NCBI RefSeq assembly: GCF_057098645.1
Contig: NZ_CM169472.1
Length of the DNA stretch: 64,000 bases
Strand: one strand, 5' to 3'
Shown here: positions 12,001-15,000 of the stretch, one piece after another
Layout: every line of letters starts with the position of its first letter
Numbering within the stretch: the first letter of the stretch is position 1
Made by a program: the position numbers

Positions 12001-15000
12001 TAAAGTTTGGCTGCATCAAGCAAGGCTGTATGCGGGCCACCAGGACCATACAGATTGATATCAGCATAAGCAGCAGAAGACAGGAATATTAAAAAACCTG
12101 CCATTATGTTCCTCATAAAAAACTCCTTTTATTGGTTATCATGAAATAAAGTTATAAACACTACAAATAATATATATTACATCCAGATAAACTTATCCGA
12201 CTTTACCTCGTGCATAGCTTGTTATTTAAAGTCAACAAAATAAGGAAAATTATACGCATATTGAAGAGTATAAACCTTACATGTTGATTACATTTTTGTA
12301 ATCAACATCCTGTTTGGAATAGCCAGCCTTTAATGGATAACTATTTCTGACAATGCAATGAGTATAATCAAGTCCATCTTCCACTGAGAATTAGAGGCGG
12401 CATGCTTTTTCCGGCTCTTGCCGGATATCCGTAATTGTCCATAATCTGCAGATTTATACCTTCTGCATGACCTGTCAGCGAAAATTTGTCCGGTGTTTCT
12501 ACGGGAATGACATCAAAGTTACACGCACTCGCGTTACCGTGTAGACCTACTTTCCTGCACTTGCAAGATCACAGTGGTGTAACCGTAACAGGAATTTATT
12601 CTCTGGACCGGCAGTAAATCCCTGAGTGGCGTGGTTCCCATATCAATTTCCCGCCAGGCAGCCTCCATTGCCAGCGTACAGGCTGGAGCCATGACCTGCC
12701 CTTTAAATCTGGCCCGACCATCCCACCGGACGTGTTCTTCTCCCCTGAACTTAGGTACAGTCATCTCCAGTGGCACAAAAGTGTCAGCGCCATAATTTTT
12801 GACCGTTATCGCGCTACGGATATTTTGTTGACTGGTGAAAATCACCCCGCAGAATCAGGCTTATTCCCTTAACCTGGGCTTTCATCCTGACCGCCGCCTC
12901 ACTACGACCAATCAGACTGCCGATGCATTTTACCTTCATTGTTAGTATCATGATTTCAGGCCTGCACCATCCGCTCATTGCCCGGACTTCCGACAAATCC
13001 CGGCAACCATATCCCGGTGCTTGTTCAGCTCCCGCAGCGCGGCGCAGACTCGCTCCCACTTCTGGACATGATTCTTCGCCCTACGCAGTTCGCGATTTGC
13101 CATATGCAGCGATGGCAAAATCAAATCATCTTCTCGCGTTGCAGTAAACGATGGCAGCGACTGCACAATGTCCGCCACAGTTTCTGTTTTAATATCTTCC
13201 TGTGTTGCATCTTTCTGTACCGGTAACGCAACACCGACTGGCTGAGGAAAGGCTTTACCATCGGTTTCCGCTACCGATTCAACTTTCGGCTCTGCTGGTA
13301 AATTATCACCTGGTATGCAGTAACGAATTTTACCGTTCTGGTTTACGCGAATCAGACGACCTTTGCTGATTGCCATTGCCAGCGTTGAAGCAACTTTGCG
13401 GGATGTTGTACCGAACAGCGTAGCCAGTTCATCCGCCGTTTGTGGTCCGCGTTGTTCAATCGTCGCGGTTAAATCGCACTCTGAGATTTTCGCTTCTGTT
13501 GCCGTGGTGGTTTCTTCTGGCGCTGGCTGTTCCTGCTGAACGTTGTTATCAGCCACACGCCAGGTGTATACGCTTTTATCAACGAAGCCAGCCTTTTTCA
13601 GTTCCCACAGCTCGTTCAGTACTTCTTCACGACTGATATCAAGTCGCGCAGCCAGCTCTACCGACGTGGCTTTTCCCATCGCTTTCAGTGCGTCAAAAAC
13701 AGTCTCCATAAATTTCCTCCCGGTAAAAAATCACTTCTCAACTCAAACAAAACCAGCCGCTTTCCGGCGTTCATATTCCTGTTTCAGCAACTCAATTGGC
13801 GTTGGCCCCGACGGGCGTTTGGGGGCCGCCAGTTGTCGCCGGACTGGCGGAACGCTCAGGCCGTTACTAACATGCTTTGCCCATTTCGTCAGTTGCCGTT
13901 CTGCAAGCCGTTTTAATTCCCCTTCGGTCATCTGGCGCTCAATCCCCTTTGAACGCATCTCGAGGCAAATGTGATACAGCACAGGCTGAGACCACGGGTA
14001 CTTATCACTTCCGTCGTATCGCCAGGACTCATTGCGCCAGCGGCGGTACTCCTCCATCACAGCATCCACCGTCAGACCGAATGGATTGGCTCCGCTTTTC
14101 GAAATCAGTGCCACAAACTCAGCCAGGTCCGGAGGCCATGTTTCACCCGCCCGGCAGCGGTCCATGCACTGGCGGCAGACCTGCCGGATTTGCTGCTCAG
14201 TCATCGCGCCAATCTGTGCAATCCAGAGCTTCGATGGTGCGGCCCCGTTCTTCTGGGTCCAGCGGTTCGAATAAACCTCCCCCATGAGTTCCCACAGCTT
14301 CCAGGCCGTTTCCGTCGCTGATAAATCCGTTTTCACGTTCCCACTGCTCACGTGCTGCCCGAATTTCCTGAACTGCCCGTGATGCGGTGCCACCTGGTGC
14401 TGCTGCATGGTTTACCCCTTTGCTGACTGGTTTAACCTGCGCCCTGACGTGATTTACGTGACGGGCGAATTTCTGCTCCCACTGAATCTGCGTAAACACT
14501 TTCCCCTCCGCTGCCCAGTAGTCCCGGAAGGCGGCAAGTTCAGCAGGTGTAAATTCTGTCTCCGGCAAAGCCATCCCCCACAACGCAGCCCGTCGTCGAA
14601 AATCCCGTGACGGATACCAGCTATCGCTCATCGGGAATTTTCCGATGGGTTCGCTCAGGCCATACAGGAATACAGGGGGGGCTGCCTGTAACGACAAAAC
14701 TTCCTGCTCACTGGTCGGAGCACTCTCGCGTGCGTTATGTGTGGGGTTTAGATCTTTGGGTTCCTTTGGGTTCCGTGATCCGTTTTTGGGTGTCTTTGAT
14801 GGAAAATTTGGGTGTCTTTGGTTATTTTCCATGCAGCTAAGAGTTCTGTTTTTGGGTCTGTTTTGTGCTGAAACATAACCATTTTCGGTACTGTTTTTAT
14901 TAACAGCACCAATTTTACCCACCTTTAAAGACTCCCGTTTTTGGGTGTATTCAGGCTCGGCAACACTTTCTTCTACACCGATAAGTCGGTACACCACAAT

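Follow-up and report, generated by a model that had tools for sequence, protein, structure and literature searches.

In bacteriophages lambda and phi80 (gp15–gp14), the gene for the replication initiator carries probable origin repeats within it and is followed by the gene for a P-family helicase loader. Lambda O's C-terminal domain is the part of that initiator that binds P. In lambda, phi80 and PAS61, the initiator and loader genes meet at a 4-nucleotide (nt) ATGA junction. Overlapping genes of another kind are known from overprinted phage and viral gene pairs, such as lambda Rz/Rz1 and the phiX174 overlaps, in which the subordinate product of the shared region is commonly reported to be disordered. 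Here we describe an E. coli prophage locus with the same gene order as lambda and phi80, located in a 64,000-nt stretch of contig NZ_CM169472.1 (NCBI RefSeq assembly GCF_057098645.1; the whole stretch is hereafter the window). In this locus an O-like initiator gene and a P-like helicase-loader gene, both on the minus strand, share 212 nt, in contrast to the 4 nt shared in lambda, phi80 and PAS61.

Our analysis indicates that this is very likely a real, conserved dual-coding overlap of a prophage replication initiator and a lambda-P-type helicase loader. The locus shows two open reading frames, conserved start signals, a partition of constraint between the two genes and folds as predicted.

Results

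Two replication genes overlap in different frames

A preliminary description of the window had claimed about 210 nt of overlap, with the O-like frame ending at 14197 and the P-like frame open from 14408. A listing of open reading frames (ORFs) bears out both boundaries and sets the length at 212 nt. The two genes and their shared DNA are as follows.

14197–15237, minus strand: O-like initiator gene, 346 amino acids (aa) plus stop; ATG at 15237 (MSIDAL...), TGA at 14199–14197
13743–14408, minus strand: P-like helicase-loader gene, long form, 221 aa plus stop; ATG at 14408–14406, stop at 13745–13743
14197–14408, minus strand: dual-coding overlap, 212 nt; O codons 277–346 plus stop, P codons 1–70

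The O-like frame is open from 15312, upstream of the annotated ATG at 15237, and its start and stop are annotated identically in LC567818 and RefSeq. P is read in the +1 frame relative to O, such that P codon position 1 is O codon position 2. A P wobble base thus opens an O codon, and an O wobble base sits in the middle of a P codon.

"O-like" is a label by position and role only, as the protein is a helix-turn-helix (HTH) and DnaT-domain initiator that lies outside the lambda O family. From the N terminus onward it has an HTH, a middle section of low complexity with iteron-like repeats, a DnaT domain (residues 201–267) and, at the C terminus, a tail (residues 268–346). In Pfam searches (cut-offs of 25 bits for DnaT and 26 bits for Phage_lambda_P), the DnaT family PF17948 was matched above cut-off at 61 bits over residues 201–267, and HTH_36 reached 20.9 bits, below cut-off. 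PDB DnaT chains matched the protein with E = 1.7e-19, and the AlphaFold2 (AF2) model was confident over the DnaT domain, which places the protein among the DnaT-domain (YdaU-like) phage initiators. The lambda initiator belongs to the PF04492 family (Phage_rep_O), which is matched by lambda O and by the initiator of one locus in our comparative set (L018); the same Pfam search returned no PF04492 match in the O-like protein. The P-like ORF, as expected of a lambda-P-type loader, matched Phage_lambda_P (PF06992) above cut-off at 61.5 bits over residues 56–188, and a weak direct match was obtained to the lambda P chains 8v9t and 8v9s (E = 0.002).

The overlap is conserved in enterobacterial loci and in Vibrio phages

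The comparative set consisted of 20 loci taken from species-representative genomes. In every one of the 19 intact enterobacterial loci the initiator ORF enters the P frame by 149–224 nt, always in the same relative frame. The genera that bear the overlap number about a dozen in all and include Escherichia (E. albertii), Citrobacter, Klebsiella, Phytobacter, Pluralibacter, Kluyvera, Prodigiosinella, Pectobacterium and Samsonia. P homologues of full length (212–223 aa) were found down to 46–55% identity. The same arrangement, with initiator/loader overlaps of 200–230 nt, is present in three Vibrio phages.

L106, 1801–2012: initiator/loader overlap of Vibrio phage D72
L107, 1681–1910: initiator/loader overlap of Vibrio phage pA2SJ1
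L108, 1693–1892: initiator/loader overlap of Vibrio phage D68

The Vibrio phage P is 31% identical to P of the window, with D72 P aligning gap-free from residue 1, and the Vibrio phage O tail is 42% identical over 31 aa. In the Vibrio phage records the loader is given as a truncated "hypothetical protein" that begins at or after the initiator stop.

Closer relatives were drawn upon to examine variation within the population. A scan of IMG/VR viral contigs kept 80 loci, all at least 97% identical, which therefore added no depth and served for the population test; this test covered 79 close relatives representing 63 haplotypes. A stop or frameshift in either frame was found in none of the 79, in a gap-free alignment. 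At 100% identity, the replication region matches both the PPompW prophages of Shiga-toxin-producing E. coli and 11 phage records, and the module was matched in 1256 of 5426 complete E. coli genomes, 906 of which cover at least 80% of the query. In a related copy, from Leclercia adecarboxylata (L017, 2938–3189), a frameshift within the overlap joins the beginning of P onto the last part of the O tail and so breaks P; this is probably a decayed prophage copy.

Alignment of homologues, proposed in the preliminary description as a check, thus finds the overlap in all intact relatives and homologous P proteins that are full-length from residue 1. The shared frame among intact relatives, together with the lack of disrupted frames in the population, shows that the overlap is not an indel artefact. 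As lambda, phi80 and PAS61, whose P proteins are more distant relatives, have the 4-nt junction, both junction types occur within the P superfamily.

The start of P probably lies upstream of about residue 30

The signals at the start of P and the internal methionine codons that have been used as alternative starts are listed below.

14415–14420, minus strand: Shine-Dalgarno (SD)-like AAGGGG, 6 nt 5' of the P ATG, inside O codons K-G-V
14406–14408, minus strand: P start codon ATG, embedded in O codons His-Ala (cAT Gca)
14283–14285, minus strand: P internal Met42 codon, the start of many 180-aa database entries, inside predicted helix 26–46
14202–14204, minus strand: P internal Met69 codon, in ATGACTGA together with the O stop; the start in RefSeq/PGAP (Prokaryotic Genome Annotation Pipeline) and Rac-SA53
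14163–14165, minus strand: P internal Met82 codon, the start in DDBJ PPompW records (140 aa)
Long-form P-specific peptide region: MQQHQVAPHHGQFR... (and residues 27–41)

Codon tests on diverged loci were carried out with 14 loci. None of the three bases of the P ATG at 14408 varies among them, and GGAGG, GAGG or GGGG is found 5' of this conserved ATG in most enterobacterial loci. In the O protein, the start signal shows as a conserved Gly-Gly ... [HNYD][AVE], of which [HNYD][AVE] is present at the start-codon position in all loci. Met69 is a methionine in 10 of the 14 loci and a leucine in the other four. Conservation of the P protein extends upstream of Met42, with the block AWxLWExMGEIYSNRW conserved from about residue 35, and a sliding analysis of codon-position variability reveals a switch from O-type to P-type at about P residues 25–35.

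Structure prediction by AF2, for which the alignments held 32 rows for P and only 16 rows for O, gave a predicted local distance difference test score (pLDDT) below 50 for P residues 1–26, followed by helices 26–46, 48–54 and 60–67 with a pLDDT of about 89, all of which precede Met69. Helices span residues 26–181, and a C-terminal helix covers residues 204–217. The best fold match of the P model in the PDB, identified by Foldseek, was full-length lambda P in its DnaB complex (9oa1_Z; 217 columns, probability 1.00). The modelled P shows the four-part layout of PF06992, in which two compact helical domains stand between a disordered arm at the N terminus and a second arm at the C terminus. In lambda P, residues 1–29/39 form a flexible "N-terminal lasso" and residues of about 30–119 a compact domain (PMC12661323); the residue numbering of P here runs about 8 behind that of lambda P. 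According to the AF2 helices and the lambda P domain map, initiation at Met69 or Met82 would lose the lasso and part of the folded domain.

The P start must lie 5' of about residue 30, and we propose that the 221-aa long form is the real P product; an additional, shorter P isoform may exist besides it. The earlier suggestion that similarity to P begins 5' of the first internal methionine (Met42) holds for sequence conservation (from about residue 35) and for the fold (from about residues 26–30), whereas the Pfam match begins only at residue 56.

Each gene is master of one half of the shared DNA

The overlap can be divided into two halves, each of which contains a conserved motif of the O tail.

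14307–14408, minus strand: overlap half A, O-dominated; O linker and conserved helix motif, P residues 1–34
14197–14306, minus strand: overlap half B, P-dominated; P residues 35–70, O residues 311–346 plus stop
14329–14379, minus strand: O tail motif SRAVQEIRAAREQWERE, O residues 287–303, predicted helix
14200–14226, minus strand: O C-terminal acidic-Trp motif LDCTDWRDD, co-encoded with the conserved P block LWIAQIGAMT

In half A, the O wobble position is the most variable (0.60, versus 0.38 and 0.36 at the other positions), and P residues 1–34 vary in both sequence and length. Variability in half B, given by P codon position, is 0.31/0.24/0.53, versus 0.29/0.22/0.59 in the P-unique region, and O-synonymous change is down to 0.15. 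The same switch is seen among variants of the close relatives, where the ratio of O-synonymous/P-nonsynonymous (SN) variants to those of the reverse type (NS) is 11:3 in half A and 6:15 in half B (Fisher p = 0.006). The AF2 model of O has a pLDDT below 50 over residues 304–346, which are predicted to be disordered. Codon variability, the variant switch and the structure predictions thus agree that each gene is master of one half: half A evolves as O over a disordered P N-terminus, and half B evolves as P over a disordered O tail.

Codon-position G + C content, the second check that had been put forward, was also computed and fails to discriminate. Within the overlap, the O frame gives 0.75/0.55/0.45 and the P frame 0.55/0.44/0.75; the unique part of O gives 0.53/0.45/0.48 and that of P 0.64/0.47/0.61.

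The O frame is open and acidic where P dominates

The O frame is free of stops across P codons 1–70 in 13 of the 14 diverged loci, the other being L020, which stops at codon 59. In the same 14 loci the O frame contains 6–13 stops per sequence across P codons 72–221, and the third frame has stops throughout. The joint openness of the two frames is thus greater than chance would give. Openness was assessed by synonymous resampling of the P codons, with the P protein held fixed and O-frame openness then scored. In these resamples the O frame reaches its real stop in 9–30% of trials per locus, which gives a summed log10 p of −9.3 if the loci are independent. In each of the 14 loci the O tail is also more acidic than its P-synonymous resamples (pooled z about 6), for codon usage drawn from the P-unique region. 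Among close relatives, the overlap carries variants at roughly half the density of the flanks (p = 1e-5), and variants that are synonymous in the dominant gene likewise have about half the density seen in the part unique to that gene (p about 0.01 for each half). Together with the open frame and the acidity, these densities are indirect signs that the subordinate frame may be under selection.

The end of the O tail follows the family pattern [LVM]D.[ST]DW..D[DE]. Similar ends are found in the Vibrio phages (LDNGDW), lambda O (TDWIYGVDL), phi80 gp15 (TDWAYGVIR) and PAS61 (EAWEDFL). That this acidic-Trp end is common to unrelated, non-overlapped O proteins suggests that it is a functional C-terminal motif that O must reach. 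The SRAVQEIRAAREQWERE motif is likewise kept even in loci with a different O body (L018, L020 and L023).

Lambda has been described, in a study cited in PMC3640518 (Yates et al. 1977), as producing a minor O' by read-through into P sequence. The lambda O frame is indeed open for 35 codons past its UGA into P (L025, lambda 39582–39690). This extension was considered as a homologue of the tail described here and rejected; it is basic and unrelated to the tail.

The O tail and P travel together behind different initiators

The same tail and overlap follow initiators of several kinds, namely the HTH/DnaT type (the window and most loci), a Phage_rep_O type (L018), a lambda-O-C-terminal type (L020) and another type (L023). 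Since the DNA of the O tail also encodes the start of P, the tail is carried together with P, as a single unit, to different initiator bodies. Identity to Rac-SA53 amounts to 92.8% across the 3' half of O together with the overlap and P, and starts mid-O near 14757; the N-terminal half of O in Rac-SA53 differs from O here. The homology to Rac-SA53 thus begins after the iteron-like cluster, indicating that the 3' part of O travels as a unit with the tail and P. The point near 14757 where it begins marks a mosaic joint.

The low-complexity middle of the O-like gene contains iteron-like direct repeats (window 14755–14951). Their core, TTTGGGTGTCTTTG (plus strand), is present in three close copies, with further relatives of 16–24 nt. 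By analogy with the lambda ori iterons inside O, these repeats are probably the prophage replication origin.

Gene neighbourhood and database annotation

On the minus strand, dicC/cro-like and ydaT-like genes come before the O-like gene, and Rac ydaU–ydaV and Rac-SA53 have the same dicA/dicC/ydaT-type neighbours. Between the ydaT-like ORF (15209–15760; Pfam YdaT_toxin) and the beginning of the O-like gene there is a further, shorter overlap in different frames within this operon, 29 nt long (15209–15237). P is directly followed on its 3' side by a DUF1627 gene (window 12975–13709; Pfam 307 bits), which encodes an HTH at its N terminus and neighbours P in many relatives. Just past the replication module (window about 12277–12809 and 11358–12116), RefSeq annotates a frameshifted fimbrial-protein pseudogene, and DDBJ places a Paa/AdfO adherence-factor gene nearby, which is virulence-associated prophage cargo.

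P is annotated with different starts in different databases. DDBJ records begin P at Met82 (140 aa), and RefSeq/PGAP and Rac-SA53 begin it at Met69 (153 aa), creating an 8-nt ATGACTGA junction with O; in the protein database the P family appears in lengths of about 140, 153, 180 and 221 aa. These length classes are start-codon choices, not biology, and we judge the RefSeq and DDBJ calls (Met69 and Met82) to be truncated.

Discussion

The preliminary description had left three options for this locus: that the genes truly overlap in different frames, that P starts internally, or that an indel extended O. The conserved frame, the start signals and the fold favour true overlap. An indel or frameshift in this particular copy, which would make the overlap a local artefact or pseudogene feature, has in its favour only the unusual overlap length and the L017 frameshift, which shows that such lesions occur. 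All intact relatives, from E. coli to the Vibrio phages, have the frame in common and an O stop at almost the same place, the O tail motifs are conserved, and the sequence identity among phage records, the 906 well-covered genome matches and the 79 gap- and stop-free relatives all contradict a local lesion; the chance that an indel accounts for the overlap is practically negligible. An internal P start, whether through termination-reinitiation at ATGACTGA (Met69) or at Met42, would mean that the upstream 41–68 codons are open by accident and that the overlap is 8 nt or about 90 nt. It agrees with the RefSeq/PGAP and Rac-SA53 annotation at Met69, with the many entries of about 180 aa that start at Met42, and with the resemblance of an ATGA-type junction to the 4-nt O/P junction of lambda. 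The openness of the P frame in half A, which is not improbable, and the Pfam match only from residue 56 fit it as well. As the sole start, however, it conflicts with the invariant codon-1 ATG, preceded by an SD in most enterobacterial loci and found at the same position in the Vibrio phages, and with the replacement of Met69 by leucine in four loci. Residues 35–68 are moreover conserved with P-type codon evolution, and in the domain that corresponds to lambda P domain II, confident helices contain or precede Met42 and Met69. We therefore regard an internal start as quite improbable.

It could also be argued that O functionally ends after the helix motif and that its last ~35 codons are functionless read-through kept open by P codon choice. 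Half B evolves like P-unique sequence, P-synonymous change is unsuppressed at deep divergence, the O tail is predicted to be disordered and L020 ends 20 codons earlier, all of which would suit such a tail. The avoidance of O-frame stops across the 14 loci, though chance openness is 0.09–0.30 in each, is not expected of functionless sequence, nor are the consistent excess of acidity and the halved density of P-synonymous variants in close relatives; the acidic-Trp end is, in addition, common to the lambda and phi80 O proteins, which are both non-overlapped. We consider this explanation unlikely. Long out-of-frame phage overlaps sometimes mark frameshift sites, and an internal SD can promote a +1 shift, as in prfB. 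A programmed ribosomal frameshift would here yield an O–P fusion protein. The more common −1 slip is disfavoured by the position of P in the +1 frame and by the third frame, which has stops throughout. The SD has initiation spacing to the invariant ATG, homologues of full length begin at that methionine, and neither an in-frame O stop nor a hungry codon was seen at the start of the overlap, where no dedicated slippery-site search was made. With an independent, conserved SD and ATG and with P in the +1 rather than the −1 frame, we rejected the programmed-frameshift class and assign it only a very slight probability.

Several observations weigh against a true overlap that is constrained in both frames. 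At deep divergence, synonymous change of the dominant gene is not suppressed in either half: in half B, P-synonymous change is 0.548 versus 0.568 in the unique region (p = 0.49), and in half A, O-synonymous change is 0.484 versus 0.52 (p = 0.21). The constraint from the subordinate frame must then be weak, confined to few sites or saturated, and of these saturation is probably the cause of the null result. That the P frame, open in all loci, stays so through half A is not in itself an unlikely outcome. The joint probability of O-frame openness treats the loci as independent and they share ancestry, and the acidity test depends on codon usage taken from the P-unique region. The predicted helix of the O tail motif has a pLDDT of about 55, a low-confidence value from the 16-row alignment, and the P start of Vibrio phage D72 has a poor SD. 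Binding of P by the O tail, discussed below, is by analogy only.

With a true dual-coding overlap as the preferred reading, a model for expression of the locus can be outlined. O and P would both be translated from one, presumed, rightward early transcript, with O read from 15237 to 14197 and P initiated independently at the internal SD and ATG (14420–14406). From the sequence, we infer that both products are made and that the overlap sets the O:P ratio. The first ~100 nt of the shared DNA would be set by O, encoding its linker and short helix, and P would gain a sequence-tolerant disordered arm, the counterpart of the "N-terminal lasso" of lambda P domain I. The last ~110 nt would be set by P, encoding the first helices of compact domain II, and O would gain a disordered tail, which selection may keep stop-free, acidic and ending in the acidic-Trp motif.

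By analogy with lambda, where P binding resides in the C-terminal part of O, the O tail may be a P-docking element. The construct that was added to the DnaB–P complex comprised O residues 156–299 (PMC12661323). A more speculative extension is that the shared DNA encodes the O–P interface as an indivisible "adaptor cassette", which was grafted together with P onto unrelated initiators and kept to stop recombination from splitting co-adapted partners, since before the enterobacterial and Vibrio phages split. On the O side such a cassette would comprise the docking tail (the helix and acidic-Trp end), and on the P side the N-terminal arm and first helices. We put this idea forward tentatively, as one that is possible but on balance doubtful.

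The overlap resembles overprinted gene pairs in that two frames are read from one stretch of DNA and the second gene has its own SD and ATG inside the first. It differs from them in that no new gene is nested here; instead, two old homologous genes, each recognisable separately, are telescoped at their termini. Also unlike those pairs, dominance switches midway. We found no earlier account of this O/P overlap in the searchable literature, of which coverage was incomplete and included few subscription journals, so that this absence is weak evidence.

For annotation, the consequence is that the current RefSeq and DDBJ calls strip 68–81 N-terminal residues from the helicase loader, and the annotated loader gene, if cloned, would probably give a misfolded or inactive protein. 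Beyond E. coli, the module also occurs in many other Enterobacterales. A dual-coding phage overlap with an internal SD and ATG is a known kind of feature, and its mechanism is ordinary; what is new is a deeply conserved example and the correction of the annotation. Two old genes share ~70 codons; halfway along, dominance passes from one to the other, and the subordinate product is predicted to be disordered. The overlap offers an idea of how initiator–loader specificity may stay linked in mosaic phage genomes.

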